Source of the DNA: Tubulanus polymorphus
Lineage: Eukaryota > Animalia > Nemertea
Assembly (NCBI RefSeq): GCF_964204645.1
Contig: NW_027437461.1
Coordinates: forward strand, 1 to 64,000
DNA: 64,000 nucleotides
Direction: 5' to 3'
Both the position numbers and the translations under genes were made by a program. The first letter of the stretch is position 1. Every line of letters begins with the position of its first letter. The notes beneath the pieces are model-generated. The model was not told the DNA's origin. It saw nothing but the letters and a program-made list of their open reading frames with translations, and made no database searches. Positions 1 through 18,126 of the stretch are shown in pieces.

Positions 1-46
1 GACAATTAAAAGAATAAAAAATAAATTAAACAATAAAAGACCATAC

Positions 47-3000
47 ATGGAAGATGTAAGAAATTATATTAATTCATTAGATAATAAAAAAGATATAGAG
101 ATAACCGAAGCATTTAAAAGTGATATTGGTCCAGCAGCTATCGAGTTTAAATTTCATAAAGGTAAAACATTAGAAGAAAATAAAAAACATTTAGAAAATA
201 TGAAAGAAATAATAAAAATAATTACAGATGTTGAATATCCTAAAATTAGTATATCAGTTAAAGTAAAGTTTATAAAATCTGAAGATAAACCAATATATAA
301 TATAAATTCTCATTCACAACATATTATATCTAAACAACATATAGATGATAAATTAGAAAAATGTTATAATGAAATAAAAACTAAAATAGAAGAAAAATAT
401 TTTGAAGGATCTGGTTTAATATTTGATGAGATAATATTTATAACTTTACATGTTTATAACACAAAATATAATAAGTTAACTAAATCAAAACCAATTGATG
501 AAAATAATTTATCATATTATAAAGATGATAGTATAAATGGAACAAGTTATATTAAACTACCATTTAAAACTAATGCTGTAATAAACATACAAAATGAAGA
601 TGATAAATGTTTTCTATGGGCTATAATAAGTTGTTTACATCCAGTTGAAGATTATAATAAACATACTTATAGATTAACTCATTATAAACCATTTGAAAAT
701 AATTATAAGATAGATAAGTATCCTGTTAGAATTAAAAACATCCCCAAAATAGAAAGAGATAATAATCTTAAAATAAATGTATTTGATTTAATTAAATTAC
801 CAAATACAAAAGGAAATAATATTAAACATTATACATTAGAACCTTTATATCTATCAAAAGATTATGATTCAAACGATGTTATAGATATATTATATTATGA
901 GAATCATTATATGTGGATTAAACAAATAGATTTATTTTTTAGAACAGAAAGTGATCACCATAATAAAATATATCTATGTAGAAAATGTTTACATAGATTT
1001 AGTAATGAAAGTACATTATTAAATCATAAACAACTATGTGATAATCATGATTATTGTAAATTAGTTTTACCAAATGAAAAGGATAAAATATTAGAATTCA
1101 AAAAATATGATTACAAAAATAAAGTACCATTTGTAATATATGGAGATTTTGAATCATTAAATAAAGAATTAACAGATAAAGATAGAAAAGATATATATTA
1201 TAAAAGAAAGAAATTAAATTCTAATGAAAGTGATTATTCAGATGAACCACTAAAAACAAATACAATTAAAAAGATTCATCAATCAGCTGCTGCTTTCGGG
1301 TTATATATTAAATCTAATTATCCAGAACTAATCGAAAGTGAATATTATAATTATAGAAATGAAAATGTTATCAATCATTTTTGTGACTTATTAATTGAAT
1401 ATGAAATAATATTTAGTAAATTATTGAATACAAATAAAGAAATAATTATGACAGAAGAAGATAAAGAAGAATTTGAGTTTGCAGATAAATGTTATTATTG
1501 TGAAAAGATATTTAATTATAAAGATAAAAAAGTAAGAGACCATGATCATTTGAATGGAAAGTTTAGAGGCGCAGCGCATGAGAATTGTAACTTACAAGCT
1601 AAGAAAATTAACTTTGTACCAGTTATATTTCATAATCTATCAGGATATGATGCACATTTATTTATCAAACAGTTATGTCATAAAATAGAAGAAATCAATA
1701 ATGAAATAGAAATATTAAATTCAAATAAACCAAAAGATAAAATACCAACTTATAAATTTAGAATGTTAGCTAAAACATCTGAGAATTATATATCTTTCCA
1801 ATTTGGATGCTTAAGATTTATAGATTCATATAGATTTTTAAGTAGTTCATTAGACAATCTATCAAAATCATTAGTTGATTATGAATTAAAGATATTAAAA
1901 GAATATTACCCAAATTATGATGATTTTAAATTAATGAGATATAAAGGAGCGATTCCATATTCTTTCTATAAAAATCATAATGATTTTAATATAACTGAAT
2001 TATTAAAAGAACAATTTTATGATGAATTAAAAAATGAATATGTTAAAGATGAAGTTTATAATAGAACATTGAATATTTGGAATCATTTCAAAATAGAAAA
2101 TCATGGTCAATTAGTAGATTTATATTTGAAATCAGATGTATTATTATTAACTGATATATTCGAAAGGTTTAGAGATGTAAACCTAAAATATTTTAACATT
2201 GATCCTTGTCATTGTTATTCTAGCCCAGGATTAACATGGGATTGTGGATTAAAATTTACAGATATAAAAATGGATTTGTTAACAAATATAGATCAATTAC
2301 TATTATTTGAAAAATCTATAAGAGGAGGTGTTTCAGGTGTATTAGGGGATAGATATTTCAATGTAAATGATAACCCTGGATATAAATTATTATACATAGA
2401 TGTAAATAATCTTTATGGTTGGGCAATGATGGAACCACAACCTTATGGGATGTTTGAAATAACTGAAGTTTTACAAATTGATAAATTTGATTGGAAGAAA
2501 AGAATTCTAGATATTGCAGATGATTCAGATACTGGTTACTTCTTTGTTGTAGATTTAAAATACCCCGAAAATATTAAATTCAAATCTAGAAATCTAGCAT
2601 ATTGTCCCGAACATAAAACTGTTAAACATGAAGAATTATCAAATTATCAAAAAAGAATTAAACCCGATAATCATATTCATACTGAAAAGTTAATGGTAAC
2701 TCAAGAAGATAAATATAATTACGTTGTGCATTATAGAATGTTGAAGTTTTATTTGAATCAAGGAATGATATTAAAAAAAGTACATAGATATATTTCATTC
2801 AGTCAATCTAAATGGTTAGAAAAATATATAGATTTTAATACTACACAGAGAACTAAATCTAAAACTGATTTTGAGAAGGATTTCTTCAAGTTAATGAATA
2901 ATGCATTCTATGGTAAGACTTGTGAAAATATTAGAAATAGAAATGATATTGAGTTAGTTAGTAATGGTAAAAGAATTAGGCATTTACAATCATATCCTAA

Positions 3001-3394
3001 GTTTATAGGTAACAGAATATTTGATGAAAATTTAGCAGCAGTTAAAATGAGGAGAACTTCTATGAAGTTCAATAAACCTATTTATGTTGGTGCATCAGTT
3101 CTAGAAATTTCAAAGTTATTAATGTATCAATTTTATTATAACATATTACAACCCCATTTTGGAGAAAAACACATAGAAATCTTATATTTTGATTCTGTAA
3201 CAGCTGACACCCCAATATTTTTAAAATATAATAATCAAATGTTAATTAGAAGAATTTCAGAAATAATTCCAAAACAAAATGAACTTTATATTTCATATGG
3301 TGAAAAAGAATTAATACAAATAAATGGATTAATGGATGTTTGGACAAAAAATGGATGGGTGAAATTAAAGAATATAATTAGACAAAACGAATAA
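47..3394 (+). CDS. polB: Protein-primed family B DNA polymerase, N-terminal part (true start upstream of window), running into intein N-terminus
   Basis: Exonuclease motifs YGDFES, FHNLSGYDAH, YLKSDVLLL; polymerase motifs YIDVNNLYG, KLMNNAFYGK; YFD just before the intein. Embedded CxxC...RDHDH...GAAHxxCN (endonuclease VII-like) domain. Frame is open before the ATG (TIKRIKNKLNNKRPY), matching copy 2 ORF 51931-52476. Confidence 0.95.
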   Translation: MEDVRNYINSLDNKKDIEITEAFKSDIGPAAIEFKFHKGKTLEENKKHLENMKEIIKIITDVEYPKISISVKVKFIKSEDKPIYNINSHSQHIISKQHIDDKLEKCYNEIKTKIEEKYFEGSGLIFDEIIFITLHVYNTKYNKLTKSKPIDENNLSYYKDDSINGTSYIKLPFKTNAVINIQNEDDKCFLWAIISCLHPVEDYNKHTYRLTHYKPFENNYKIDKYPVRIKNIPKIERDNNLKINVFDLIKLPNTKGNNIKHYTLEPLYLSKDYDSNDVIDILYYENHYMWIKQIDLFFRTESDHHNKIYLCRKCLHRFSNESTLLNHKQLCDNHDYCKLVLPNEKDKILEFKKYDYKNKVPFVIYGDFESLNKELTDKDRKDIYYKRKKLNSNESDYSDEPLKTNTIKKIHQSAAAFGLYIKSNYPELIESEYYNYRNENVINHFCDLLIEYEIIFSKLLNTNKEIIMTEEDKEEFEFADKCYYCEKIFNYKDKKVRDHDHLNGKFRGAAHENCNLQAKKINFVPVIFHNLSGYDAHLFIKQLCHKIEEINNEIEILNSNKPKDKIPTYKFRMLAKTSENYISFQFGCLRFIDSYRFLSSSLDNLSKSLVDYELKILKEYYPNYDDFKLMRYKGAIPYSFYKNHNDFNITELLKEQFYDELKNEYVKDEVYNRTLNIWNHFKIENHGQLVDLYLKSDVLLLTDIFERFRDVNLKYFNIDPCHCYSSPGLTWDCGLKFTDIKMDLLTNIDQLLLFEKSIRGGVSGVLGDRYFNVNDNPGYKLLYIDVNNLYGWAMMEPQPYGMFEITEVLQIDKFDWKKRILDIADDSDTGYFFVVDLKYPENIKFKSRNLAYCPEHKTVKHEELSNYQKRIKPDNHIHTEKLMVTQEDKYNYVVHYRMLKFYLNQGMILKKVHRYISFSQSKWLEKYIDFNTTQRTKSKTDFEKDFFKLMNNAFYGKTCENIRNRNDIELVSNGKRIRHLQSYPKFIGNRIFDENLAAVKMRRTSMKFNKPIYVGASVLEISKLLMYQFYYNILQPHFGEKHIEILYFDSVTADTPIFLKYNNQMLIRRISEIIPKQNELYISYGEKELIQINGLMDVWTKNGWVKLKNIIRQNE

Positions 3395-4256
3395 GAAAAT
3401 CTATAGAGTTAGAACTAAATTAGGATTTGTTGATGTTACTGAAGATCATAGTTTAATTAAACGAAATGGTGATGAAATAAAACCAACTGATATAAAAATT
3501 GGAGATGAATTATTACACAACAGATTTTACCCAAGAATGAATCATATGTTATTTGATAAAATAATTGATAATATTTATAATATAGAACCCGAAACATTAG
3601 AAGAAAAAGAATATTTTATCAAAGGATTTTTTATGGGTGATGGTTCAGCAGGTGTGTATAATTATGTTAGTGGAACTAAATATTGTTGGTATTTATGCAA
3701 TCAAGATTTGAAATTATTAGAAAGAATTAAGAAATACTGTGAAGAAGTTTATTCACATAAAACATTTAGAATCATGGATGTTATGAAATCATCGCAATGT
3801 TATAGAATACATGTGAATAATCCTAAAGATTTTGCTACAAAATATAATGATGAATTCTATATTCATGCAATAGTGAAAAGTAATACTTCAACAAAAGAAA
3901 AGATAGTTCCAGATTATGTATTAAATGCAAAATATGATTTAAGAAAATGGTTCTTCATTGGATTTTATGCTGCAGATGGTTCAAAAAAATATACAAAACA
4001 GAAAACTATATCTTTGACACAAAAAGGAAAAGTTGCTATATCAGGATTAAATATATTATGCAATTCATTAGGATTTAATATGTTAGTTAATATTAGAAAA
4101 GATAAACTAAATGTATTTCAATTAACGCATGTAGAAAATGAACTAACTGAAGAAGCTACTGATTTATTTGAAATATACAATCCTACAGAATGTGTTTATG
4201 ATTTAACAACTGAAGATGGTACATTTAATTGTGGATTTCCATTAATCATAAAAAAT
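3194..4256 (+). other. Intein with LAGLIDADG homing endonuclease in the pPolB YxD|TDS motif (2-nt frameshift near 3385)
   Basis: Block A SVTADTP directly after YFD; block B FVDVTEDHSL (shifted frame, ~3426-3455); LAGLIDADG motifs FIKGFFMGDGS and FFIGFYAADGS; block F VYDLTTEDGTF; C-terminal IIKN followed by extein T(DS). Copy 2 reads YFDTDS uninterrupted. Confidence 0.93.
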
Positions 4257-4787
4257 ACAGATTCTTACATATTAAAGATAAAAACTGATAACATAACAGA
4301 TGATTTAAAAACATTAAAACACCATTTTGATTTTAGTAACTATCCTAAAGATCATGAATTGTTTAGCAATGATAATAAAAAAGTTCCAGGGAAGTTTAAG
4401 GATGAATTAGGTGGTGAAGAAATGATAGAGTTCATTGGTATTAGATCTAAAATGTATTCATATAAAACTAAAACTCATGAAGCTAAAAAGTTAAAAGGAA
4501 TTACCAAAAGTGTAGTAGAAAAGAATATTCATTTCAAAGATTACATTAATTGTATATTTAATGAAGAAGTTAGAAAACATAAGATGAAATGTTTAAGATC
4601 TGAGTACCACGAAATGTTTATTGAAGAAATAGAGAAGATAAGTCTAAACCCATTTGATGATAAAAGATATATTTTAGATGATGGAATCCACACAGTCGCC
4701 TATGGTTGCAATTTAGATGAATATATAAAATTCAAAAGAGAAGAAACAAAAGAAAATGAAATCATGAAAAGGATTCTAACGTGTTAA
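3537..4787 (+). CDS. polB: Intein endonuclease/C-terminal splicing region plus pPolB C-terminal extein (same gene as 47-3394)
   Basis: After IIKN: TDSYIL, FDFSNYP, VPGKFKDE, RSKMYS, LNPFDDKRY, typical of a pPolB C-terminus and near-identical to copy 2 41812-42340. Confidence 0.92.
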   Translation: MNHMLFDKIIDNIYNIEPETLEEKEYFIKGFFMGDGSAGVYNYVSGTKYCWYLCNQDLKLLERIKKYCEEVYSHKTFRIMDVMKSSQCYRIHVNNPKDFATKYNDEFYIHAIVKSNTSTKEKIVPDYVLNAKYDLRKWFFIGFYAADGSKKYTKQKTISLTQKGKVAISGLNILCNSLGFNMLVNIRKDKLNVFQLTHVENELTEEATDLFEIYNPTECVYDLTTEDGTFNCGFPLIIKNTDSYILKIKTDNITDDLKTLKHHFDFSNYPKDHELFSNDNKKVPGKFKDELGGEEMIEFIGIRSKMYSYKTKTHEAKKLKGITKSVVEKNIHFKDYINCIFNEEVRKHKMKCLRSEYHEMFIEEIEKISLNPFDDKRYILDDGIHTVAYGCNLDEYIKFKREETKENEIMKRILTC

Positions 4788-4815
4788 TCGATTTCAATAA
4801 AAATTTGTATAATAA

Positions 4816-5157
4816 ATGGAGAGTAAACAAGTACACAGTGAATTCTTAGATAGAATTAAAGATACTTCAAGCGTCAAATCTGTAGATTATAAATTTAAAA
4901 AACTAACTGAGTTAACAATTCACAAGAAATATTTAATTACTAACATTGAAACAATTACTAATAAATATGGAGATAAATTAGTAATTCATTTAGAATATGA
5001 AGGATTAAAAGGAAATAAATATAAATTCAGAACTTATTTACCAGATAGATTTCATAGATTATCAAGTGAAGATTTAGAAGAATTATGTTCTGGAGATTTC
5101 TATTTCGTATACAAAGGTAAGAATGAAAAAGGGCACCATGAAATAGATTTCGAATAA
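4816..5157 (+). CDS. Conserved Polinton protein, 113 aa (possible OB-fold ssDNA-binding protein)
   Basis: Intact in both copies (41441-41782) with TAAATG start. Beta-rich pattern KKLTEL..KKYLI..TNKYG..YLPDRF. Fold is inference only. Confidence 0.75.
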   Translation: MESKQVHSEFLDRIKDTSSVKSVDYKFKKLTELTIHKKYLITNIETITNKYGDKLVIHLEYEGLKGNKYKFRTYLPDRFHRLSSEDLEELCSGDFYFVYKGKNEKGHHEIDFE

Positions 5158-5174
5158 GAAAATATGTAAAATAA

Positions 5175-5933
5175 ATGGTGGAATTAAAAGAATACAGAAT
5201 ATTTGTTGATTCTAGAAAACTTACAAATTATAAATCACATAATTTATTAGTACAATTAGACAGAGAATTCAAGAATTGTGTAGATTTAAAATTAGTTAAT
5301 ATAAGTTTATGTAATTCTTTTCATAATATATCGGATAAAAGTTTTGATCATAGAGACTTTTTAATTCATATTAGAAATATAAATAAATGGTTTCAACTAA
5401 TTTTAAAACCAGGATTATATAATTTAGATACATTAGCACAAGAAATTAATCGGAGAGCACGATTAAAACTTAAAAGTGAAGATAAATTTTCAATTAGATT
5501 TATAAAAAGTGATAGTTCTAATAAAATTAAAATAAAGTTAGATGATGAAAACAAACATGCATTTATGGTAAGGAAACCTTTAGCTAAACTGTTAGGAATT
5601 AAACCACAAACTGTTACAGGAAACGTAGACGGTAATTCAAATATAATACCTTTTACACATTTTTATATTTATTGCAATTTAATTGACCCAACAAAAACAT
5701 TCGAAGCAACTAAAGATACAACATGTAATTCTAGTATATTAAATATTTTACCATTAAAAAATGTTAAACAATTTGGAACGCAAATAAATTATAATTTAGC
5801 TGAATGTGATTTCAAACCTTGTATTCCTCAATTTAATAATTTTAAATTAGAAATAAGAAATCATAATGGATACTTAATTGATTTGAATAACTTTCCTGTA
5901 ATTTATGAATTAGTTATAAGATGTAAAGAGTAA
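5175..5933 (+). CDS. Minor capsid protein (penton, single jelly roll)
   Basis: N-terminal IFVDSR, PGLYN, FYIYCNLI and C-terminal EIRNHNGYLIDLNNFPVIYEL, the pattern of Polinton/virophage minor capsid proteins. Confidence 0.8.
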   Translation: MVELKEYRIFVDSRKLTNYKSHNLLVQLDREFKNCVDLKLVNISLCNSFHNISDKSFDHRDFLIHIRNINKWFQLILKPGLYNLDTLAQEINRRARLKLKSEDKFSIRFIKSDSSNKIKIKLDDENKHAFMVRKPLAKLLGIKPQTVTGNVDGNSNIIPFTHFYIYCNLIDPTKTFEATKDTTCNSSILNILPLKNVKQFGTQINYNLAECDFKPCIPQFNNFKLEIRNHNGYLIDLNNFPVIYELVIRCKE

Positions 5934-5949
5934 TTTTTCACCTATATAA

Positions 5950-6297
5950 ATGAATATAACTGTTGGACCGAGTATATGTTTTGGGTTTGATTTTAAACGT
6001 GAGAAAGAAATGAAATTTAACATTTATGATGTAATAACACATATCAAAAATATTGCATTTTCTAATGAAACAACATTTGAGTATGAAACAACAATTGATA
6101 AAGAAACTTTTAATATAGAAAAGATTACCGAATCTTTAAGATTTTATGAATTAGATGAAGATTTTATCATCGATGATATTAAAAACATATTATCCAAAAT
6201 ATATGATAATCATAAAACTAGTAATGAAATAAATGTTGAATTAATCATAAATAAGTTAACTAAATATTTTGATGATAGTAATTTTTTTGATAAATAA
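5950..6297 (+). CDS. Polinton hypothetical protein, 115 aa
   Basis: TAAATG start; ortholog at 40294-40653. Confidence 0.75.
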   Translation: MNITVGPSICFGFDFKREKEMKFNIYDVITHIKNIAFSNETTFEYETTIDKETFNIEKITESLRFYELDEDFIIDDIKNILSKIYDNHKTSNEINVELIINKLTKYFDDSNFFDK

Positions 6298-6519
6298 ATG
6301 AGTGATAATAAGTGGATAATAACTGGATTATATAATGGCGCATTACTATCAGTTGGAACTGTTGGTTATTCAATGGTATTAAAAAAAGTATTCAAAATGG
6401 GAAGTGTTAATGTTGATAGATTTGATATAAATGATATTTTAAAGTTAACATTAGCAGTTACTTTATCTAATTTAACAATTGATTATTTGGAAAAACAAAA
6501 ATATATTCCTCCCATATAA
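6298..6519 (+). CDS. Small hydrophobic Polinton protein, 73 aa
   Basis: Two hydrophobic segments; nearly identical intact ortholog at 40076-40297. Confidence 0.8.
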   Translation: MSDNKWIITGLYNGALLSVGTVGYSMVLKKVFKMGSVNVDRFDINDILKLTLAVTLSNLTIDYLEKQKYIPPI

Positions 6520-6542
6520 ATGCATAATTTTTTGCTAAATAA

Positions 6543-6965
6543 ATGGCTTCTGCAATTATAACTATTATAGGATCAGCAATTGTTAACGCTTTAGCATTTA
6601 CTGGTGGTGGTTATTTATTTAAACATATTGATAAAAATGGTTCATTAACAGAACAAAAAAGACATAATTTAGCGTTAGAGAAATATAATAAAGATGCAGA
6701 AGAATATAGAGAAAAGAGACAAAACTATATGGATTACATCAATAAAGAATTATATGATCAGAAGATTTCACATAGAGATTTTCAATCAGTCGATGATGCA
6801 ATGAGTTTATATAACGCAGTAACAAATAAAGAAAAATTACATCTATACAAACCTAAATTATCAGATTATTATACCCCAAGTAAAGAACAACAGAAATATG
6901 AAATAATTTGGATTTTAGGTGGAACAGTTATTGTTATATTTGTTGCTTATAAGTTTACTAATTAG
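6543..6965 (+). CDS. Polinton membrane-associated protein, 140 aa
   Basis: Hydrophobic N-terminal helix MASAIITIIGSAIVNALAFTGGG, charged helical middle, C-terminal TM segment; ortholog 39629-40051. Confidence 0.8.
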   Translation: MASAIITIIGSAIVNALAFTGGGYLFKHIDKNGSLTEQKRHNLALEKYNKDAEEYREKRQNYMDYINKELYDQKISHRDFQSVDDAMSLYNAVTNKEKLHLYKPKLSDYYTPSKEQQKYEIIWILGGTVIVIFVAYKFTN

Positions 6966-6984
6966 TAATTTTTATTCTAAATAA

Positions 6985-7419
6985 ATGGAAGATAAAGTTG
7001 ATAGTATTGATATTATTCCTCATGATATAAATAAAACTAAATTAAAAATATATTTAGAAAAACAAATATTAGAATTTGAAAGTGACTTAAAGATAAAAAA
7101 GAAAAAATATTTAAAAAGTAAAATTATATATTATTTGATTATAAGTGGTTCGGTTACAATTAGTTCTGTAATAACATTTCTAGCAATATTCAGCCCATTA
7201 ACACCTTTAGCTATATCGATTGGTGTGTTAGGATTAAGTTCAAGTGTTTTAACTGGTATAAGTTCAAAATTAAATATAAAAAGTAATAAAGAAAAAATTA
7301 AAACTAATATAAAAGAAATAAATAAATTAAAGAACACACTAGATTATATAATAAGTTTAAATGGTCATATAACAGTTGAAGAACAAGATAAATTATTAAA
7401 AGAATTAATAAATTATTAA
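6985..7419 (+). CDS. Two-TM Polinton protein, 144 aa
   Basis: Hydrophobic hairpin flanked by basic coiled segments; ortholog 39175-39609 differs at two residues. Confidence 0.8.
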   Translation: MEDKVDSIDIIPHDINKTKLKIYLEKQILEFESDLKIKKKKYLKSKIIYYLIISGSVTISSVITFLAIFSPLTPLAISIGVLGLSSSVLTGISSKLNIKSNKEKIKTNIKEINKLKNTLDYIISLNGHITVEEQDKLLKELINY

Positions 7420-7435
7420 TTTTTTAATTATATAA

Positions 7436-8737
7436 ATGGGGTTTCCAAAAGCTTTCCAATATAATAAATCAATTAAATATAATATTCCAGCAATAGATTT
7501 TAAGAAAAATATTACATATAAAAATATAGTTTTAAATTCATTAACTAATTTAGAAATTTATGTTAATGAATCACAGTTTTTTATTTCTAAAATGGAAAAT
7601 ATATTTAATACATATGAAGTTACTTTTACTCGAGATGAATATCATAAATATAAAGTAAAATCTAATATGAAGTATTGGCAGAACCAATTAGATTTTGCTG
7701 TTTATTGTGCAACAACAGGATGTGGAATAAGTTGGAATGATCATTTAAATAACTTAGATAAAAATTTGAAGTATTCTGATTTAAAATTAATTCACACAAT
7801 ATTTAGATTTCACTCATATTTTCAAATCAGAATAATATTAAATGAATTAGAATGTCCTTTACCCGGGTCTAAATATTTTAAAGAATTAGATAATAATATT
7901 AATATATCCAAGTTTTATAAAATATGTAATGAATTTAATATAAATATTAATTCCGATTTTAGAGCGCATGGTAAATTGCAAGGTGTTGGTGAACAGTATG
8001 AAATAAAAAGAATTGATTATATGCATAGAATTGGAGCTTATCATAATTATAAAATTGATAATAATAATGGTTGGGTTAATTTCATTTTAGAAAATGGTGA
8101 AGGTTTTACAAAATCAGGTATAGAAAGAATAAATCAATCTATTAGAACTTATTTGATATGTATTCTAGGCGCCCAAGTTGAAACAAGATCCCCAATAATT
8201 GGAAATGATAACACTTCATTCGATGCGCAAAAACAATTCAAAGTATTATTTGAAGATTCCATACATGATGATAAAAATAGATCGATTCCAGAAAACATTA
8301 TAAGATATCAAAATTATTTAGATAAATCTCATGTAAGACTAAATTATTGTATAGGCCCTAATCTATTAATTATTTCTAATGATTTAGTATTAAAGATGGG
8401 AAATATAATTGGTTATAATAATCTAATTAAAACTGCAACAATAAATAATTCATTTGGATTAAATGATATAAATAAAAAGATTATTACTGCTCCAAAATTA
8501 ATGGAAGGTGAAAAAAATAAAAAACACATTCAATCAACAGAAACTAAAACTAAGAATATTAAATTGGTTAATGATTCCAAAATAAAAGATTATAATACAT
8601 CAGAAAATATAAAAACTGATATTATTCAACATGATATAATTAAACTAAATGATGATAATAAATCCCATGAAAATACTAAATTAGCTATAACTTGTATAGG
8701 AATTGTAATCGGAGGAATATTATATTTTAAATTTTAA
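7436..8737 (+). CDS. Conserved Polinton protein, 433 aa, with C-terminal membrane anchor
   Basis: YWQNQLDFAVYCATTGCGISW motif; C-terminal LAITCIGIVIGGILYF; ortholog 37774-39158. Confidence 0.8.
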   Translation: MGFPKAFQYNKSIKYNIPAIDFKKNITYKNIVLNSLTNLEIYVNESQFFISKMENIFNTYEVTFTRDEYHKYKVKSNMKYWQNQLDFAVYCATTGCGISWNDHLNNLDKNLKYSDLKLIHTIFRFHSYFQIRIILNELECPLPGSKYFKELDNNINISKFYKICNEFNININSDFRAHGKLQGVGEQYEIKRIDYMHRIGAYHNYKIDNNNGWVNFILENGEGFTKSGIERINQSIRTYLICILGAQVETRSPIIGNDNTSFDAQKQFKVLFEDSIHDDKNRSIPENIIRYQNYLDKSHVRLNYCIGPNLLIISNDLVLKMGNIIGYNNLIKTATINNSFGLNDINKKIITAPKLMEGEKNKKHIQSTETKTKNIKLVNDSKIKDYNTSENIKTDIIQHDIIKLNDDNKSHENTKLAITCIGIVIGGILYFKF

Positions 8738-8753
8738 TTTTTTTATTATGTAA

Positions 8754-10220
8754 ATGGCAGAAGGTGTAGAAGATATTGGAATGGATACTTTTGATAAACC
8801 CAGCATAACTGAAGAACAACAACCTAATTTAAATGAAACAAGTTTTAATGATGATGGTAATGAATCAGCTTATAATTCTAATTTAGCAAATAGAGGTTAT
8901 AAAGTCCCATCAACAGATGAATTTGATAGAAGAACTAGATCGAGAATACCTCCTGAAAATTTAGACCCATATTTAGAAAGAGAAAATTTAGAAAAAATTA
9001 GATTTTTAAGTAAGATTAAATATGATTTTAAAAAATCTGAATATAATATAAATGACGAAGGCGCCAGACTTTTAGCACAAGATTTAAAGTTTTTAGATGG
9101 TGAATATTATTATCATTTATCCTATGATTATTATATTGATATCTCTTATAAAAAAGGAGAAAAAATATTAGCAAAATCAACTTTGCTTAAGTCTGACTCA
9201 TTACTATCTAGAATTAAGAAAATCAATAATGATGTTATAACTGATTTAACACAAACAGAAATGAATAAATATTTAATAGTATTTAAACAAAGAATTAATG
9301 ACTTATTTAAAATAATCAAAAAGAAATCGGAAATAGAAACAACTTCTAAACAGAATATAACTTCCAAAACTAGTAAACTTAAATCAAACACTGAAGTTCA
9401 AACTGAAAAACTTTTACCGAATGGATTACTTGATGCAACAGATCAAGAAATAGAAGCTTTAAGTATGTTTTCTAAAAAAACAATTAGAGAAATAATAGGT
9501 ATACGAAATGAAGCCGATAAAATTGCTCGCGAAAAACATATTAGATATAATAAAATTAAACCTTTAGAAAATAAATTATTTGACACCAGAAAAGAATTAG
9601 AACAATTAAAATTAGATAGAGAATTTAAAGTTATTGAAGAAATTGAATTTAAAAAAAGAAATGCATATTTAGAAAAAGAAATTGATGATTTAAAATATAA
9701 CATAGAATTTCAGAAAGAAAAAATGAAATTATTATTAAAATCATATGATTATTGTATTAATAGATTAAAAGTTGTTGTTAAAGAGTTAATACTAAAACCA
9801 AATTCTGACATATCATTAAAAGATAGAATAAAATTATTATTTAAGTTTGAAGGAATAACAATTCTTTCAATTCTAACAGCTGTAACTATGGTATTTACAA
9901 CAATAGGTTTAGCAATATCAAATGCTTTAAAATCTACTCCTACTCCCACTCCTAATAAACCAGATAAACCTCCAGGCAATAATTCTATACAAGATAAAGT
10001 TAAAGATGGTTTAAAGAAATTAGCAAAATATTTATGGGAACTATCAAAGAAATCTGTTGCAGCTTTACCAGGAGTTATTGCTTCAATTGTTGGTTTTATA
10101 TTGAAATCTGCAGGAAACATTATTAACTTTGCTGCTGAACATATTATTTTATTTTTAATTACAGTTGTAAGTGCTATTATTTTTGGTTTAGTGAATATGA
10201 TATCAAAAAATATCAAGTAA
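8754..10220 (+). CDS. Coiled-coil protein with hydrophobic C-terminal helices, 488 aa
   Basis: Acidic N-terminus, long coiled coil, TM-like EGITILSILTAVTMVFTTIGLAI and C-terminal amphipathic/TM helices; ortholog 35331-37757. Confidence 0.8.
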   Translation: MAEGVEDIGMDTFDKPSITEEQQPNLNETSFNDDGNESAYNSNLANRGYKVPSTDEFDRRTRSRIPPENLDPYLERENLEKIRFLSKIKYDFKKSEYNINDEGARLLAQDLKFLDGEYYYHLSYDYYIDISYKKGEKILAKSTLLKSDSLLSRIKKINNDVITDLTQTEMNKYLIVFKQRINDLFKIIKKKSEIETTSKQNITSKTSKLKSNTEVQTEKLLPNGLLDATDQEIEALSMFSKKTIREIIGIRNEADKIAREKHIRYNKIKPLENKLFDTRKELEQLKLDREFKVIEEIEFKKRNAYLEKEIDDLKYNIEFQKEKMKLLLKSYDYCINRLKVVVKELILKPNSDISLKDRIKLLFKFEGITILSILTAVTMVFTTIGLAISNALKSTPTPTPNKPDKPPGNNSIQDKVKDGLKKLAKYLWELSKKSVAALPGVIASIVGFILKSAGNIINFAAEHIILFLITVVSAIIFGLVNMISKNIK

Positions 10221-10259
10221 ACATGATAAAAAATAAATAATTAATTTTTTGTTAAATAA

Positions 10260-11498
10260 ATGAGTGGGAGTTATATAAGTCCCTCTAAGATTTCTAGAAT
10301 ATCTAATGCTATTAAAGCAGAAAGATCACATCATATAATTACTCATAACCCTTCAAATATTAATCCTGATGAAACTTTATATGTTAGAATTCCTAGATTA
10401 ACACAAAATACTTTTTATGTTCCAAACAGTATTTATTTATCCGCTGATATAAAAGTAATCGGTAATAATAACAATTATGTCGTTGATAATGTTGGAAGAT
10501 ATTTAATTAAAAAGTTAACAAGATTGGTCCAGACAGTCTCATTAGATGATTATAATTTATTTATGCATTATAAAGATTTATGGTTAACTAAAGAAAATAG
10601 AAATAATATGATATTTCAAGGAATTCAATCAGAAAACCAAAATAAATTAAGATCAGAAGCTAATAGCGCAATATTAACAAATGATGTAGATAAATTGATA
10701 AAAAGTATATATGGAAGCAAATATAAAATTCCATTAGACTTTGAATTGATAAATAATAATGCACCTTTATATAAATACGCAATTCAAGAAGATATTATAT
10801 TTGAGATAACATTTGCTCCTGTAAATGAAATTGTATTATCTAGCGTTAATAAAGATATGAGTTATAAATTATCGAATATATGTTTAGAATATGATACAGT
10901 AACTGATGAAAATATTTCAAGTATAATTCAAACTCAATACAATCAAGGATTTTCATTATTATATGATTATATTGATAAATTTAAAACTGTAACTATTAAT
11001 GCAAATGATGAAATAATAAATGAGAATATTAACTTTCCTAGAAGATCTATTAAAGGTATATTAATATTTTTTACTATTGGAACATATACTAATGGTGCAA
11101 TAAATGTTGATAATTATTATAATCCTGAAATAACAAAAGTAGAAATAACTATTGAAGGAATAGCAAATAAAATATTTTGTCAAGGAATGAGAATGATAGA
11201 TCAATGGGTAGAAATTAAAAAACATTTTATGAATGAAAAAGTAAAATCATTTGAAAATTGTAACATTAATCAAATTGATTATTATACCGGTAATAAATAT
11301 GCATTATGGTTAGATTTTAGAACAACAGAAGATAATTCATTACATGGTTCTGGGAAAAAATTACAAAATACAAAAGATGGAATACAATTATTCATGACAA
11401 AGAAAAAGGGAATCAAAAATTTTAAAATGCACATTTATATTATATCTGACGCGCAATTAAATATTGTAAATTCACAATTAGATAGTGTTATGTATTAG
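10260..11498 (+). CDS. Major capsid protein (double jelly roll)
   Basis: Size and beta-rich sequence (HNPSNINPDETLYVRIPRL, YKLSNICLEYD, YALWLDFRT) fit a Polinton MCP; highly conserved with copy 2. Confidence 0.82.
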   Translation: MSGSYISPSKISRISNAIKAERSHHIITHNPSNINPDETLYVRIPRLTQNTFYVPNSIYLSADIKVIGNNNNYVVDNVGRYLIKKLTRLVQTVSLDDYNLFMHYKDLWLTKENRNNMIFQGIQSENQNKLRSEANSAILTNDVDKLIKSIYGSKYKIPLDFELINNNAPLYKYAIQEDIIFEITFAPVNEIVLSSVNKDMSYKLSNICLEYDTVTDENISSIIQTQYNQGFSLLYDYIDKFKTVTINANDEIINENINFPRRSIKGILIFFTIGTYTNGAINVDNYYNPEITKVEITIEGIANKIFCQGMRMIDQWVEIKKHFMNEKVKSFENCNINQIDYYTGNKYALWLDFRTTEDNSLHGSGKKLQNTKDGIQLFMTKKKGIKNFKMHIYIISDAQLNIVNSQLDSVMY

Positions 11499-11530
11499 AA
11501 TTTTAACTTTAATAAAAATGTATATAATAA

Positions 11531-12580
11531 ATGGAAGGTAAAGTATATAAACATATTCCTTACATCGATACACATGAAAATAATGATGGTTTATATTATG
11601 TAATACCTTGTAATATAGCTTTGATATTTGATCCTATTTTTAAAAATTATAAAACTAAACTGATAGAAATCGATAATAATAAAAGTGGTGTTGTTAATAA
11701 TTTAAGTAATGTAATTGATAATAATGAAATACCTTCTACATTAAATAATATAATACCTTCTACATCTGTAATACCTTCTACATCAAATAATATAATACCT
11801 TCTACATCAAATAACATAATACCTTCTACATCTAATAACATAATACCTTCTACATCTAATAACGTAATACCTTCTACATCTAATAACATAATACCTTCTA
11901 CATATAATAATGCAATAATATTAAATGTTAGTGAAAATAGAAATTATTGTGGTTATTGTAATGGTGAATTTTCAAACGCTCCATCAAATTGGAATAAACA
12001 TATGAATACAAATTCACATATTACTAATGTTATAGAACGTGTTGGTTTAAGAGAATTTATAGAACACCCATTTAGATATGTTACAAAGTTTGTTTCAAAT
12101 AAAAAAGTAAATGGTGAAAAAATATATGAAGATTTATTATTAGCAACACCTAATAAAGATGAATTAGATTTAACCGATGCTAATGAAATATTAGGATCAA
12201 ACACTGTAAATGAAATATTAGGAGTAAACACTAATAAAGATGATAATGAAAATGATGCCATAAAGCACCCACATGATGATATAGTTACAGTTAAACATAT
12301 TGATAATAAAGATTCTATAAAACTTAAAGTAGAAAATAATAATAAATTTGATTGGAAGAATAAGTTAAAAAATGAAACAACTATTGATGATGAGGTAAAA
12401 AAGATAAAAAAGGAAAAAAAGGTGAAAAAGGTGAAAAAGGTGAAAAAAAATTATAAAGATGTTGATGTAGATTCGGTAGAGCATTTAAATATGGTGTTAG
12501 AGTCATCTGATAGTGAAAGTGATTCAGAAATTGATAGTGAAAGTGATTCAGAAATTAATTATCTAACACTCAAAAAGTAA
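11531..12580 (+). CDS. Polinton protein with IPSTSNN tandem repeats and a C2H2-like zinc finger, 349 aa
   Basis: 24-bp coding repeat ~11728-11910; CGYC...HMNTNSH; basic and acidic tails; intact ortholog 33132-34025. Confidence 0.8.
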   Translation: MEGKVYKHIPYIDTHENNDGLYYVIPCNIALIFDPIFKNYKTKLIEIDNNKSGVVNNLSNVIDNNEIPSTLNNIIPSTSVIPSTSNNIIPSTSNNIIPSTSNNIIPSTSNNVIPSTSNNIIPSTYNNAIILNVSENRNYCGYCNGEFSNAPSNWNKHMNTNSHITNVIERVGLREFIEHPFRYVTKFVSNKKVNGEKIYEDLLLATPNKDELDLTDANEILGSNTVNEILGVNTNKDDNENDAIKHPHDDIVTVKHIDNKDSIKLKVENNNKFDWKNKLKNETTIDDEVKKIKKEKKVKKVKKVKKNYKDVDVDSVEHLNMVLESSDSESDSEIDSESDSEINYLTLKK

Positions 12581-12638
12581 TAAAGGTTGAAAATTGTATA
12601 AAATAATAGTAAATAAAAAAAAGGGTTTAAATTATTTA

Positions 12639-12708
12639 AGGTATCTAATAGGGTAACAGGTATTAGGGTATCAGGTATTAGGGTATCAGGTATTAGGGTA
12701 TCTAATAC
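12639..12708. repeat. 15-bp GGGTATCAGGTATTA tandem repeat between convergent gene blocks
   Basis: Seen directly; a rearranged version lies at ~32995-33075 in copy 2. Confidence 0.8.
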
Positions 12709-12724
12709 ATTGGTATACAAATAG

Positions 12725-13336
12725 TTATTTTATAAATTTATATTCATATGGAAATTGTAATCTCATTAATAATTTTGAACCTTTATTATTCTTTAATTTA
12801 TTCATATATTCATCATGTAATTCAGGAGGTATAATTTGATTTTCTTCTAATGATTGTTGCATAGATTTTCTATCTTTGTTATAAAATAAAACTAGAAATC
12901 TTATATTCTCTCTAAAATCTTTCACAATTGAATTATATTTCTGATTTAAAACCCAAGTTGTTATCCCAAAATGTCTACCAGAGAAAGCTAAATAACATAA
13001 CTCACTTTCTCTAATTTTAGAATCATGTAAATTTGCGCAATCATCTATAATGAATAATGTATTTGATCCTTTAAAAATATCTAATGCAATTTTAATACAA
13101 TTATCTAAATTTTCTTTTACTGTTTTAGGATCTAATATAATAAACTTTTTTATCTTAACTATATCTCTATTATACGTTTCATTCATTTCATATGTAGGAC
13201 AGAATAATATTATATTATCAAAATGATTCTTATAAATAGTTTCTAACAAATCTAATATGAAGTGTGTTTTACCACAATTTGTAACTCCAGTAACTAACAT
13301 ATTATGTGGTTCAAATATAAATAAATCTTTATTCAT
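12725..13336 (-). CDS. DNA packaging ATPase (A32/FtsK-HerA family)
   Basis: Walker A GVTNCGKT, Walker B LFIIDD, arginine-finger motif SGRHFGITTWVLNQ. Confidence 0.92.
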   Translation of the reverse strand: MNKDLFIFEPHNMLVTGVTNCGKTHFILDLLETIYKNHFDNIILFCPTYEMNETYNRDIVKIKKFIILDPKTVKENLDNCIKIALDIFKGSNTLFIIDDCANLHDSKIRESELCYLAFSGRHFGITTWVLNQKYNSIVKDFRENIRFLVLFYNKDRKSMQQSLEENQIIPPELHDEYMNKLKNNKGSKLLMRLQFPYEYKFIK

Positions 13337-14444
13337 TTATTCTTTTAATTTTACTAGATAAAATCCATTCATTAAATTTATCATCATATCCTTTATATTT
13401 CACCAAAGAATACTTTTTTCCTTTAAGAGTTTTTGTTTTCAATACTTTTTCTATTTTGTATTCTATTTCATCTGGATTTGGTACTAATGATAATTCTTGT
13501 TCATAGAAATAACCTAATATTTCTTCATCTTTTAGATCTTCTAGTTTATAAACAAATGGTTTAGTTAATATTATCTTTTTAATTTTAAATATTTCTTCAG
13601 TAAAATTAGGGGTATAACCTTTATAAAATGTTTTTCGATATTTAGATATTCTAACATGTTGTCCTATTTTAAATTTAGGTTCTCCAAAATCGTGTGTAAC
13701 AAATGCGCCATATAAATTATTCCAAACTATTTCCGAATTATCTTCTTTTCTAGCTTGTATAGGTTTCATATTTATAGAACTATGTTTAGAATTATTATAA
13801 CCTTTAACTAAATCATCTAACACATTGATATATTTATATGTTTCATTAGCAGTAAAATATTTCCACATTCTAGTTTTCAATGTTTTATTAAATCTTTCTA
13901 TAACGGATGCTTTTTTATCTGAATGTGTTGAAAAATATTCTACATCGTTATCAGATAATAGTTTTTTGAAATGTTTGTTATAAAATTCCTTACCTTCATC
14001 AAATTGTATCTTATCTGGAATAGCTTCTTTAAATATAGATTTAAAAGCATTTGTAACTTCTATACCAGTTTTATTTTTAATCGGGATACTCCATGCGTAT
14101 CTACTGAATATATCTATAACATTTAATATCCAAAAATATCCTTTGTTATATTCTTCTAAGTTTTTCATATCAATTAAATCAGCTTGCCATTGTTGGTCAA
14201 TATATGAAACCATTACTTTTCTTGTTAAATATTTTTTATCCATCTTTTTATGAATTTGATATGTGGGTTGATTTTGTAACCATGATTTTAATTCACTATA
14301 TTTTATACCACCATGTGGGTGCCGTACGGCACCATCACTATTATCAGATTTAATTTTATTCCATAATTCTGAAACGTTAGAATATGATACTTCACTTTCT
14401 GGGTTATAATATAAATCTCTCAAATATTGTTCTTTTTTCATCAT
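13329..14444 (-). CDS. int: Retroviral-type (RVE) integrase with C-terminal chromodomain
   Basis: WQADLIDM, IDIFSRYAW, IQFDEGKEF, VIERFNKTLK (DDE); C-terminal YKIEKVL...LVKYKGYDDKFNEWI. Confidence 0.95.
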   Translation of the reverse strand: MMKKEQYLRDLYYNPESEVSYSNVSELWNKIKSDNSDGAVRHPHGGIKYSELKSWLQNQPTYQIHKKMDKKYLTRKVMVSYIDQQWQADLIDMKNLEEYNKGYFWILNVIDIFSRYAWSIPIKNKTGIEVTNAFKSIFKEAIPDKIQFDEGKEFYNKHFKKLLSDNDVEYFSTHSDKKASVIERFNKTLKTRMWKYFTANETYKYINVLDDLVKGYNNSKHSSINMKPIQARKEDNSEIVWNNLYGAFVTHDFGEPKFKIGQHVRISKYRKTFYKGYTPNFTEEIFKIKKIILTKPFVYKLEDLKDEEILGYFYEQELSLVPNPDEIEYKIEKVLKTKTLKGKKYSLVKYKGYDDKFNEWILSSKIKRINE

Positions 14445-14447
14445 ATT

Positions 14448-14837
14448 TTAATCCATTAATAATATTTTAGATTTATTTTCATTTGATTTATGATTTGACT
14501 TATTTTCTGGTATAATAGGTTTATTGTCTGTACACGGATAACTAAGTTTCCGATCATCATTGGAATCATCTTTATCATCAGATTTGAATTTTGATTTATA
14601 TATTACACCGGATAATATAATAACTGTTACTAATCCAATTGTAATATATAATTTATAATTACTTCCAGCATTAGAAGAATTAGATGGATTATTATTTGAA
14701 TCAATACCATCAGATTCATTTATATCAGATAATTTCTTTTTCTTAGCTTTTTTTAATTCTGATGATCTTTTACCTAATTCTCTTGCCCATTTAATTTGTT
14801 TCTCGGATCTAGCCTTTTTCTTAACTCCATCACTCAT
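14448..14837 (-). CDS. Polinton single-TM protein, 129 aa
   Basis: Basic N-terminus, TM LYITIGLVTVIILSGVIY; ortholog 30915-31283. Confidence 0.75.
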   Translation of the reverse strand: MSDGVKKKARSEKQIKWARELGKRSSELKKAKKKKLSDINESDGIDSNNNPSNSSNAGSNYKLYITIGLVTVIILSGVIYKSKFKSDDKDDSNDDRKLSYPCTDNKPIIPENKSNHKSNENKSKILLMD

Positions 14838-15438
14838 TTATTTTAGTTAATTTTTGTTCTGATTCATTTTCTGTTTCGACATTTGGTTGTAGTACAGCGT
14901 CATCTGTTTCGTTCTTACCTGATTTATATTCCATAGGTTTGATGTTCGAAAATGTTATAACTCCAGTAGAAATCAATGTCATAACCGATCCTAATTGAAA
15001 TGAAGCATAACCAACCCATTTTTGTAATTCAGTCATAACTAAATAGTCATTTTTCAAATCATTATATAATTTATTTTCATCATCAATTGGTATTAACTGG
15101 TTACATAATTTTGATTAACATTTGACAATACCATTAGAAATAGAATCATTTATTCTAGCTAATCTTGACTCTTCATAAATCTTAAAATATTTTATTACTT
15201 GATCGGGTTTCATAGCATCTAGTTCTTGAAAAGTTATTATTTTTCCCAAGAAATCCTTAGATTTCCCGCCAGCAATTAATAATTCAAGATGATGCTTACA
15301 ATATAAATAGTATTCATAATCTATATTGTTATTAACTTGAATAGAATTAGAAACAACTGTATCCTTATTATCACTAATACCTAAATCATCTAATGTTTTT
15401 TCAATATCAATACTATTCTTACTCGATTTCTTTGACAT
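14830..15438 (-). pseudogene. Polinton hypothetical gene (~202 codons) split by one in-frame TAA at 15115-15117
   Basis: ORFs 15115-15438 and 14830-15057 are in one frame and read through as ...IVKC*SKLCNQLIPIDDENKLYNDLKNDY...; ortholog 30370-30922. Confidence 0.75.
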
Positions 15439-15741
15439 TTATATTAGAGGAAAAAAGCAAAAAAATATTATAAGTATTCTTCAAATGATACTAGCTAGTT
15501 AAAGTTAAAGAATTCTAGTATTGACTACTGATACTAGCTATTTGAATTTAAAGAATTTCTATTCGGATCTATTCAAAATATAAAGTATTCTCTTTTTGAA
15601 AAGAAAATATTAAAAATATAATAGAATTCGATAGCTAGTTGAAGTTATTGTTTTTTAAATACTTTTTATTTAAATTAGGATTTGATATCTCACTACTTTT
15701 GTTTATCTATTAGGAGCAGTAGTTATAACTGTCCAGATAAG

Positions 15742-16416
15742 TCATTTCGGATCCTTGATATCAAATTCCTCAACGTATCGTTCATTATTTGGATTATTGT
15801 TCCATTGATCAATAAATTTCTTTGCCTTTGTTAACTGTTCTAAATATAACTGTAAATCTAGTTTATTAGATTTGATTTGATTTTCTTTCTTTTCTAAAGG
15901 TCTTAAATTTTTCCAACCCCAAATAAGTTTCTTATTGTATTCATCATTCATTTTAAATTTAGATATTGGTAACACGTGATCAATATGGTAATAATCCCCA
16001 TAATTATCTATATTCATTTTATCATCGAATTGAAATATAATCCATGATTTGAGAAATTCATCTGAACAACCCAATAAATTAGATAGTGTTTCTGAATATG
16101 TTTCTTTGTTGAATAATTGTGTTAATCTAGACCTTAAGCATTGTTTCAATCTAAAATTAAGATCTGTTTGATATCTTTCTCTCATATATTCTGTCATATA
16201 ATCATTATAAGATTCTCTATTATCTTCTCGGTATTGTTTGGTATATAGTTTAATGCAAGTTTTACAGTAATATTGAAAACCATCTTTGCTAATCTTACGC
16301 TTACTAAATTCTGTTAATGATTTATCTAATTCACATTTAGAACACTTTTTGTAATATATGTTTATAACACCAGTGTTATTTGTAATATTGATAATTTGTG
16401 GTTGTTCTGGTTCCAT
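15742..16416 (-). CDS. HNH-family endonuclease with N-terminal zinc ribbon
   Basis: KKCSKC...CKTC; YHIDHVLP...NLRPLEKKENQIKSNK, an HNH-like pattern seen in phage and large-virus nucleases. Confidence 0.8.
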   Translation of the reverse strand: MEPEQPQIINITNNTGVINIYYKKCSKCELDKSLTEFSKRKISKDGFQYYCKTCIKLYTKQYREDNRESYNDYMTEYMRERYQTDLNFRLKQCLRSRLTQLFNKETYSETLSNLLGCSDEFLKSWIIFQFDDKMNIDNYGDYYHIDHVLPISKFKMNDEYNKKLIWGWKNLRPLEKKENQIKSNKLDLQLYLEQLTKAKKFIDQWNNNPNNERYVEEFDIKDPK

Positions 16417-16555
16417 TTATTATACGTATTTTTTTACTAAATTGGTTAATATTTTAGAATCCTCTTCCATTTCTTCGATCAGCGTCATACTTTTTCATTC
16501 CTCGCTGCTTTTGATAAGTTGTTTCGATTCCTTGATATCTAAATAATACCACTGG

Positions 16556-16898
16556 GCAAAACCGCGCATTCATGCGCGCTTTTGCTTAATGCGCATGCGT
16601 TAATCATAATTATATATTCATTCTGTAAATTCTGTGAAATAGAAACAACTGAACATAGAAAATTCAAACGTATGTACACTAAGCAAAACCGCTCTTATAG
16701 GAGCGTTTTTGATCAATGCGCATGCGCTAATCATAATTATATATTCATTCTGTGAAATAGAAACAACTGAACATAGAAAATTCAAACACATATGCATGAG
16801 GCAAAACCGCTCTTATAGGAGCGCTTTTGCTTAATGCGCATGCGCTAATCATAATTATATATTCATTCTGAATAGAAACGACCGAACATAAAAATTCA
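16556..16898. repeat. Three ~120-bp tandem repeats, each with a hairpin and a GCGCATGCG motif
   Basis: Units start at 16556, 16683 and 16801; a single unit in copy 2 at ~27565-27655. Confidence 0.85.
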
Positions 16899-16969
16899 TC
16901 AATCAGATTTACACAATACATTATACAAGTTGTTCGGCCGTTTCTTCTAATACATCATTTGATTTCTAT

Positions 16970-17190
16970 AAATACAATTTATAATTACAAACATTTTTTC
17001 AATTGCTGGTAAATATTTAACTACATCAACAAATGTTAAACTTAATCATTGGAGTCTTAATGTTTTTGAAATTCTTATATAGTTTCTTCGACGATCTTTT
17101 GGCGATTCTATTGGTTTGATATCCATTGCTGTTGATTCCTCAGTCAGAAAGAGTATCTTGAGTTTCTCTATCACTTCTTGATGCGTATGG
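16970..17190 (-). pseudogene. Internally deleted remnant homologous to the copy 2 accessory gene 28798-29528
   Basis: Minus strand reads LSLTFVDVVKYLPAIEKM vs LGLAFSEVVRYLPEIEEM; GATAGAGAAACTCAAGA vs GATAGTGAAACTCAGGA near the 5' part. Confidence 0.55.
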
Positions 17191-17859: not shown

Positions 17860-18126
17860 TTTAATACTATATTTTTTATTAAAATTGATTTTAGAAGTTC
17901 AATGATTTAAATGTTATTCATTTATGTGAATATTTTAAGAGTAATAGGGATAATAGGCTTTCGTATCAAAGGTTGAAGGGGCGAGTGAGTAAAAAAATGA
18001 AAATAATAATAATTTACAGTTGAATTAGGAGTGTGCGCGACTAATTCAACTGTAAATTATTATTTTCATTTTTTTACGAGCTCGACCCTTCGACCTTTGG
18101 TATGAAAGCCTATTATCCCTATTACT
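17746..18126. repeat. Right terminal inverted repeat of copy 1, with terminal 187-bp palindrome 17940-18126
   Basis: Homologous to copy 2 TIRs; AGTAATAGGG...CCCTATTACT fold-back. Confidence 0.88.

Follow-up and report, generated by a model that had tools for sequence, protein, structure and literature searches.

Inteins inserted into the catalytic motif C of family B DNA polymerases (PolBs) are known from giant viruses and archaea. The intein of the Mimivirus PolB and those of other giant-virus PolBs lie at the YxD/TDS site and begin with SVTxDTP (Ogata et al. 2005, PMC549080), and they also display TEDHSL, two LAGLIDADG motifs, a Lys-Asn end, and Thr+1 within about 350 residues. Archaeal PolB motif-C inteins (Thermococcales, Methanocaldococcus, and DPANN; L102-L127) occupy the same site with the same block pattern. 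The 64,000-nucleotide stretch analysed here (the window) contains two Polintons, and the polymerase gene of the first, Polinton 1, is interrupted at this site by an insert that shares these features, is 40% identical to the Mimivirus intein, and is only 23-28% identical to the archaeal inteins, which form a separate clade. However, the host enzyme is here a protein-primed Polinton polymerase, whereas giant-virus inteins reside in RNA-primed, delta-like enzymes, and the intein is carried by an element integrated into the genome of an animal, where tens of filled copies coexist with empty ones. We consider it very probable that this is a motif-C-family intein in the polymerase of a Polinton integrated in a ribbon worm, Tubulanus polymorphus, that its intact copies, as predicted, splice, and that it has likely spread by cutting empty sites; the copy in the window is frameshifted.

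Virus-like polymerase inteins have also been described on nuclear scaffolds of algae and a labyrinthulomycete (Gallot-Lavallee et al. 2023, PMC10710043), likewise carried into the nucleus by an endogenous viral polymerase gene. However, none of those hosts is an animal, section 8 of that paper names neither a Polinton nor a protein-primed polymerase, and the present carrier integrates in many copies, some with and some without the intein. Endonuclease domains occur inside Polinton polymerases as the HNH and VSR inserts of Jeong et al. (bioRxiv 10.1101/2023.08.22.554363), but these have other nuclease folds and are described without a splicing domain, whereas here a complete Hint and LAGLIDADG unit lies in motif C. 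One sentence in Krupovic et al. 2024 (PMC11161782) suggests intein invasions as the source of such inserts, and the window intein would be a direct example for this proposal. The carriers resemble the Polintons/Mavericks/adintoviruses with Beta-type PolB of Starrett et al. 2021 (PMC8502044) in their weak PF03175 match, integrase, packaging ATPase, capsid-like gene, terminal repeats, and 6-base duplication; in contrast, the word intein does not occur in the main text of that paper, and no maturation protease gene was recognised among the window frames scanned. Inteins are stated to be missing from metazoan genomes in PMC8529194, the survey of eukaryotic inteins in PMC5784728 names fungi, algae, protists, and giant viruses, and PMC12220804 and PMC3671162 mention inteins in general terms. 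An insect iridovirus intein is mentioned in PMC549080 and, thus, there is a precedent for inteins in animal viruses. No earlier description was found of a Polinton or any other protein-primed polymerase, or of an animal nuclear genome, containing an intein with Hint and LAGLIDADG domains, although RepBase, subscription journals, or supplements may hold one. The family to which the window insert belongs is known; what is new is the type of enzyme that hosts it and, by way of this enzyme, its presence in an animal genome.

The window starts inside a long reading frame (2-3394) whose Pfam matches indicate a protein-primed PolB (PF03175) that contains an endonuclease VII-like insert, and a second frame (3378-4787) holds the LAGLIDADG matches and the end of the polymerase. 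Since the intein start, SVTADTP, lies in the upstream polymerase frame and its end, PLIIKN, in a different one, the copy contains a single frame break. The insert comprises 1,063 bases (354.3 codons) at 3194-4256, between YFD, which ends at 3193, and TDS, which starts at 4257. Its boundaries are exact on two grounds: Polinton 2 aligns up to 3193, resumes just after 4257, and reads an uninterrupted YFDTDS, and 113 raw reads join both flanks, skipping exactly 1,063 bases. Thus, the insert of about 355 codons splitting YFD/TDS that an initial annotation of this DNA had proposed is confirmed, and SVTADTP, TEDH, GFFMGDG, GFYAADG, VYDL of block F, and Lys-Asn with Thr+1 all lie where it had placed them. 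As expected of a class 1 intein, the insert is missing from otherwise matching alleles and occupies a conserved site of the host protein, and the window copy has Ser1, Thr and His of block B, Asp of block F (F4), the terminal Asn, and Thr+1, that is, the nucleophiles and the helpers Thr B7, His B10, and Asp F4 whose roles are given in PMC4031507. The penultimate His, usual and not obligatory, is absent and Lys is found instead. The same annotation was right about this residue and wrong to regard it as an oddity, and its candidacy as a special feature was rejected, because the 167 inteins of the family have Lys in 77 cases, including Mimivirus, and His in 80. The intein is single-copy within the window, and its G+C content (24.6%) is close to that of the exteins (26%). 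An uninterrupted intein is carried by 19 Polinton relatives, and about 137 of the 167-186 reads across the break position, from other copies, do not have the break.

With an X placed at the break, the insert scored 315 bits against a profile of 58 virus PolB inteins, with all 348 positions covered, and 45 bits against a profile of 11 archaeal PolB inteins (263 of 388 positions). Since 200 shuffled controls reached maxima of only 8.7 and 5.0 bits, respectively, these matches are not due to chance. Moreover, PF14890 (Intein_splicing) spans the insert in all six uninterrupted polymerase relatives scanned, above its curated cut-off in one (P0003), and TIGR01445 matches five of these six, three of them above cut-off (P0003, P0006, and P0032). 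The Hint and LAGLIDADG profile check that had been proposed thus recognises the insert as an intein on family profiles, with the curated models matching in uninterrupted relatives. The Hint fold was assessed on a natural uninterrupted relative, P0006, instead of the broken window copy. Its AlphaFold model (mean pLDDT 77, mostly 85-98 within the intein) finds homing-endonuclease inteins as its best structural matches, namely TliVMA (E 3e-14), PhoVMA, PI-PkoII, PI-PfuI, and PI-SceI, and its nuclease domain matches I-DmoI with a root-mean-square deviation of about 3 A over 177 columns, all structure matches lying between E 3e-14 and 1e-6. Both the insertion point and full-length homology are common to the window intein and the PolB motif-C family, and the insert can be assigned by its sequence to the LAGLIDADG inteins of the giant-virus/archaeal PolB motif-C (site III) family. 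The recognition of YxD/TDS as a known intein site of archaeal and giant-virus PolBs was correct in both site and block pattern.

The carrier has the protein-primed PolB, the retroviral-type integrase, and the packaging ATPase that characterise Polintons, and Polinton 2 is 87-93% identical to Polinton 1 over most of its length. Terminal inverted repeats and the 6-base duplication are demonstrated for Polinton 2, and only the right end of Polinton 1 lies within the window. The target-site duplication is exact and, therefore, Polinton 2 is integrated in the flanking DNA. Together with the PF03175 polymerase, these features bear out the Polinton context claimed for the intein-bearing gene. The capsid-like frame is less telling, since its Atlas look-alikes score 0.97-0.98, some of them with capsid families on 10-24% of members, but have low recognition value, and there is no Pfam match.

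Filled and empty alleles were compared in raw reads of one run (X5), of which about 12% was read, with 8,475 reads placed on 2400-5000 at an identity limit of 85%. From 30 depth bins, 14 extein and 11 intein bins were used and five at junctions or beyond the gene were left out. Median depth was 568 in the extein bins versus 207 in the intein bins, about a third, and depth falls to 40-110 in the 3' intein bins, probably through divergence below the 85% limit. At least 252 reads span the empty site in five listed joints; 113 of the 252 are the reads that skip exactly 1,063 bases and have the filled-type downstream flank, and the other 139 have a changed one, read joints being the basis for describing empty-site variation within this genome. 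If the read label is taken as T. polymorphus, with a genome size of 313-358 Mb (table of PMC8468679), the depths would correspond to about 90-105 polymerase and 33-38 intein copies per haploid genome. Filled and empty alleles coexist at high copy in the genome.

The same coexistence is found among relatives. When the insert is compared with longer proteins, the top-ranking matches are other protein-primed polymerases that carry this intein at the corresponding position (65% to 43% identity); giant-virus PolBs rank next (Mimivirus 40%). A total of 1,294 cluster representatives match the insert at E 0.001. The proposed search for other intein-bearing Polinton polymerases was productive, yielding 20 Polinton inteins. 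One 90% cluster has 136 members, and the 15 listed (contigs of 57 kb to 1 Mb) include seven filled and six empty alleles and two that are too short. A tree of the upstream extein, with site columns excluded, was built from 140 rows, comprising two window rows and 138 proteins (of 163, 144 had a scorable site and 138 of these were long enough). The 19 filled rows require 16 state changes, 10 of them forced by starred branches; two sets of identical upstream exteins contain both states, and the four closest relatives of the window Polinton pair are empty alleles. Moreover, the filled P0004 has a YMD/TDS flank within a TDG clade, which is the pattern expected of co-conversion.

Sequence at the insertion site differs strongly among these alleles. 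All 19 filled alleles with both ends in the extein-tree count have TDS, whereas the 120 empty ones have TDS in 61 cases, TDG in 28, CDS in 14, TDA in 14, and others in 3. Non-TDS motifs make up 57 of 69 empty alleles in an intein-rich clade versus 1 of 29 in an intein-free clade; since 29 of the 57 belong to one clade, the Fisher test on these variants was not used as a probability. In the 136-member family together with its two nearest records, identity between each of the eight empty alleles and the filled alleles is only 50-60% up to 10 residues from the site, versus 92-100% farther away. The empty alleles represent three site types; when their variability was compared over 467 eight-residue windows, the site had the highest value (0.39, versus 0.03 upstream and 0.05 downstream). 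In the window pair, four of the first nine bases after the site are changed (P 0.003 at a 7.5% background, for a stretch picked after looking). A co-conversion tract was also considered for this pair and rejected, since the mild dip in identity just upstream of the site (0.83-0.88, versus about 0.93) is equalled elsewhere. Judging from the allele sequences, the differences between filled and empty sites would be explained by co-conversion from a divergent donor. Co-conversion alone does not explain the differences among empty alleles and, thus, these suggest, in few families, selection for escape from cleavage.

With regard to origin, all 20 Polinton inteins form one clade in a 167-row tree (FastTree support 1.0). 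A 45-row subset contained eight Polinton inteins, 30 virus PolB inteins, and, as root, seven archaeal inteins from the same site, the virus rows, most without a species name, being classed by polymerase motifs and contig names. The Polinton rows again form one clade (100/100), which groups with virus PolB inteins against archaea (100/100) and falls inside the virus inteins on a starred branch (100/96), beside giant-virus genome bins; the virus inteins were kept together in none of 200 bootstrap trees. The phylogenetic check against giant-virus and archaeal PolB inteins thus supports the part of the initial proposal that links Polinton inteins to large DNA viruses, and descent from giant-virus PolB inteins is the reading favoured by the tree. 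In an alignment-based scan, the full-length inteins from viral loci were all in RNA-primed-type virus PolBs, as judged by their flanks; a scan of viral contigs with the single insert as query gave no match.

In five Beta-like relatives, the intein is about as similar to that of the window as the upstream extein is (intein/extein identities of 0.65/0.64, 0.52/0.48, 0.51/0.43, 0.46/0.44, and 0.44/0.45), and one further record, P0007, has an intein 47% identical to that of the window and an extein that does not align with the window extein and looks Alpha-type in the terms of PMC8502044 (stronger PF03175 match). The intein therefore appears to have been gained only once, and long ago, and later to have moved at least once from one polymerase class to another, as seen in this one record. 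A recent direct transfer from virus to worm was rejected, the intein being an old resident of several Polinton lineages; hence, the earlier proposal that a selfish element invaded a Polinton polymerase stands, but not as a recent gain in this animal.

A mechanism can be proposed that accounts for these observations. The intein would have passed once, long ago, from a giant-virus PolB to a Polinton in a co-infected cell, which the YxD-TDS common to both enzymes may have made possible. Splicing would follow class 1 chemistry, with an acyl shift at Ser1 aided by Thr and His of block B, transfer to Thr+1, and cyclisation of Asn, and would rejoin Asp with Thr-Asp of motif C. Since the intein splits this motif, filled elements would have no working polymerase until the intein is spliced out. 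The nuclease would cut empty sites, with the filled copy as repair template, either during replication of the element or between integrated copies. After the transfer, the present distribution could have arisen as the intein homed from one Polinton to another, was lost from some, and on one occasion entered the other class of polymerase; more speculatively, empty alleles would escape by altering the DNA, and sometimes the protein, at the site. The window copy would be a dead end for the protein while still usable as a repair template. In its full form this picture is put forward tentatively and may well prove too bold, namely that a giant-virus-derived intein is active in an animal genome, homes among tens of Polinton copies, has crossed polymerase classes, and is engaged in an arms race in which escape turns the catalytic motif, usually the best-conserved region of the polymerase, into its most variable one.

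Alternatively, the intein could be a passive passenger that was acquired a single time in the distant past, passed on together with the Polinton, and repeatedly lost or recombined, and that still splices and no longer homes. The parallel identities of intein and extein in the five Beta-like relatives fit such long co-inheritance, and TDS is present in 61 of the 120 empty alleles and the filled-type flank in the 113 empty-site reads. However, both acidic residues of the endonuclease are kept in 20 of 20 aligned Polinton inteins, and by the established reasoning of the homing cycle intact nuclease motifs are unexpected after long disuse. Moreover, identical upstream exteins occur in both states, the filled-type flank of P0004 occurs within a clade of TDG alleles, the site is where variation is highest, and one intein sits in an unrelated polymerase class. 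A passenger is thus unlikely, and an intein that has spread by homing is preferred.

The placement of this intein in an animal nuclear genome, as initially claimed, is supported by a protein with OTU/Herpes_teg_N domains encoded in the window, which matches an NCBI record of T. polymorphus in 243 of 246 residues; all three matches in this search come from T. polymorphus, on contigs of 16-25 Mb. It would be very surprising if the contig or its Polintons came instead from a protist, fungal, or viral contaminant, in which case no animal genome would hold the intein. Such a source could be suspected from the lack of any ordinary host gene found in the window, and because the species label of the reads can cover associated organisms and five other runs with this label are nearly devoid of the words of this stretch. 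Nevertheless, the 99% identity over those 246 residues is to a record on chromosome-scale contigs, Polinton 2 has its clean target-site duplication in the flanking DNA, reads matching the window stretch come from two studies (words of the stretch occur in four of the 10 runs listed under one species label, these four from one study and none recorded as RNA, whereas X5 belongs to another study), and 114 X5 reads at 99% identity or higher give about 6.6-fold depth, near the 5.4 to 6.2-fold expected for one copy per haploid genome. The contaminant explanation is not borne out.

Finally, a non-splicing endonuclease or Hint-like fusion, comparable to the HNH/VSR inserts of nematode Polinton polymerases, is the least credible explanation, because, although fused nucleases do exist in Polinton polymerases (bioRxiv 10.1101/2023.08.22.554363) and the Hint profile scores are modest, the insert parts the two aspartates of motif C and would leave the enzyme dead without splicing, all class 1 nucleophiles and helpers (PMC4031507) are kept, and the fold is that of full inteins.

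Several results weigh against a homing intein of viral descent in the worm. The frame break leaves the window copy unable to encode either a full intein or a full polymerase, neither of its two pieces reaches the curated Hint cut-offs (for TIGR01445, the short first piece has E 0.048), PF14890 gives no match on either, and in five of the six polymerase relatives scanned its score is under the cut-off. The test for clustering of the filled alleles says little in either direction (33 of 500 shuffles gave an equally low value), patchiness could come from repeated precise loss or ordinary recombination between Polinton copies, and a filled fragment outside the extein-tree count, P0155, has TDA, so that TDA sites are not always refractory. 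With regard to viral origin, an approximately unbiased (AU) test (p 0.099) leaves compatible a topology in which the virus inteins are a clade of their own, apart from the Polinton inteins, and the favoured nesting is thus not decisive. As for the host, this window is the only one among the intein-bearing records that is tied to an animal, and the animal marker lies within a mobile insertion. Pfam found no ordinary host gene in 193 short flank frames, the sole match being a retrotransposon RNase H, and Rfam, tRNA, and Pfam scans of the Polinton flanks also revealed no host gene; thus, the animal assignment rests on the mobile marker and the reads.

An integrating virus-like element would represent a route past the metazoan intein barrier, with the limit that the gene in which the intein resides belongs to a virus or transposon rather than to the host itself. 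Genes would then have passed from giant viruses to Polintons, or the other way, across two unrelated polymerase types and, therefore, both would once have shared a cell. Moreover, because a single genome contains many copies of the family, some filled, some empty, and some perhaps resistant, the homing cycle and escape of the target site can be tested within an animal.

Table 1. Positions of the intein, its blocks, the two Polintons, and the animal marker in the window.
Feature	Position	Strand	Evidence or remarks
Polymerase upstream of the intein	2..3193	+	PF03175 E 1e-16, PF02945 E 5e-5; 4,428 relatives
Intein, composed of a Hint splicing domain and, nested in it, a LAGLIDADG endonuclease domain with two motifs; one frame break	3194..4256	+	PF14528 E 1e-7, PF05204
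Block A with Ser1 (SVTADTPI)	3194..3217	+	Sequence; Ser1 in 20/20 aligned Polinton inteins
Frame break of the intein (overlap of two reading frames)	3378..3394	+	Frame comparison, reads
Block B, TEDH (Thr B7, His B10)	3438..3449	+	Sequence, family alignment
First LAGLIDADG motif (GFFMGDG)	3624..3644	+	Acidic residue kept in 20/20 Polinton inteins
Second LAGLIDADG motif (GFYAADG)	3960..3980	+	Acidic residue kept in 20/20 Polinton inteins
Blocks F and G (VYDL ... KN) and Thr+1	4194..4259	+	Sequence, family alignment
C-extein of the polymerase, TDS to stop	4257..4787	+	DNA 94% identical to the matching part of Polinton 2
Polinton 1, left end outside the window	1..18126	.	Polymerase, integrase, ATPase, capsid-like gene; right terminal repeat ends ..ACT at 18126
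Polinton 1 capsid-like gene	10260-11498	+	
Polinton 1 packaging ATPase	12725-13336	-	
Polinton 1 integrase with chromodomain	13329-14447	-	
Polinton 2, about 90% identical to Polinton 1	26981..52817	-	463-base terminal inverted repeats; target-site duplication of 6 bases without mismatch; several of its genes are broken
Empty allele of the intein site (YFDTDS), Polinton 2	42334..42351	-	Synonymous differences from the filled copy at 4 of the first 9 bases past the site
OTU / Herpes_teg_N protein, in the 6.6-kb insertion inside Polinton 2	47810..49189	+	Animal marker

Other observations concern the wider distribution of the intein family. A 4.2-kb metagenome contig (L006, 10-4197) is the only Polinton-type locus found in the scan of contigs, and its intein-bearing polymerase is interrupted inside the endonuclease domain. 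P0094 and P0176 are type II topoisomerases, a non-allelic host, with inteins of the same family. Giant-virus-like PolB inteins with 30-44% identity are also present on five contigs in prokaryote genome bins (L094, L095, L096, L100, and L104), which are probably mis-binned virus DNA.

Both Polintons encode a free-standing endonuclease VII/HNH-like protein (15742-16416, minus strand, and 27775-28437, plus strand; PHROG E 5e-20), whose gene adjoins short direct repeats near the right end and is a second candidate homing nuclease of the element. An endonuclease VII-like domain (PF02945) is also located inside the polymerase (1450-1600, plus strand), as in many relatives, so that, together with the intein, the polymerase holds two nuclease inserts. 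The Polinton 2 polymerase frame starts, with zinc-finger-like motifs, within the terminal inverted repeat (52363-52817; 17599-18126) and, therefore, a stub of it is found at the other end of both elements. The Polinton 1 capsid-like frame (10260-11498, plus strand) departs from that of Polinton 2 over a short stretch (..LTRLVQTV.. versus ..LTIKIGPETVF..) and, thus, Polinton 1 may have decayed beyond its polymerase. Polinton 2 has an extra 204-codon frame (28914-29528, plus strand) that is not in Polinton 1 and has no Pfam or PHROG match. Its polymerase gene is split by the 6.6-kb insertion (44016-50638), the end of which resembles 22049-24257. Genes for OTU/Herpes_teg_N proteins are found in Helitron-like elements of marine animals.

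Outside the Polintons, a segment on the minus strand (55771-55917), with no Pfam match, resembles the terminal coding exon of a host gene, in which a splice-acceptor-like site precedes coding sequence ending in ..LLEEIPNPDKFLQELLTSV-stop. A retrotransposon at 57467-63487, presumably DIRS-like by its layout, encodes reverse transcriptase and RNase H in overlapping frames and has short terminal inverted repeats.

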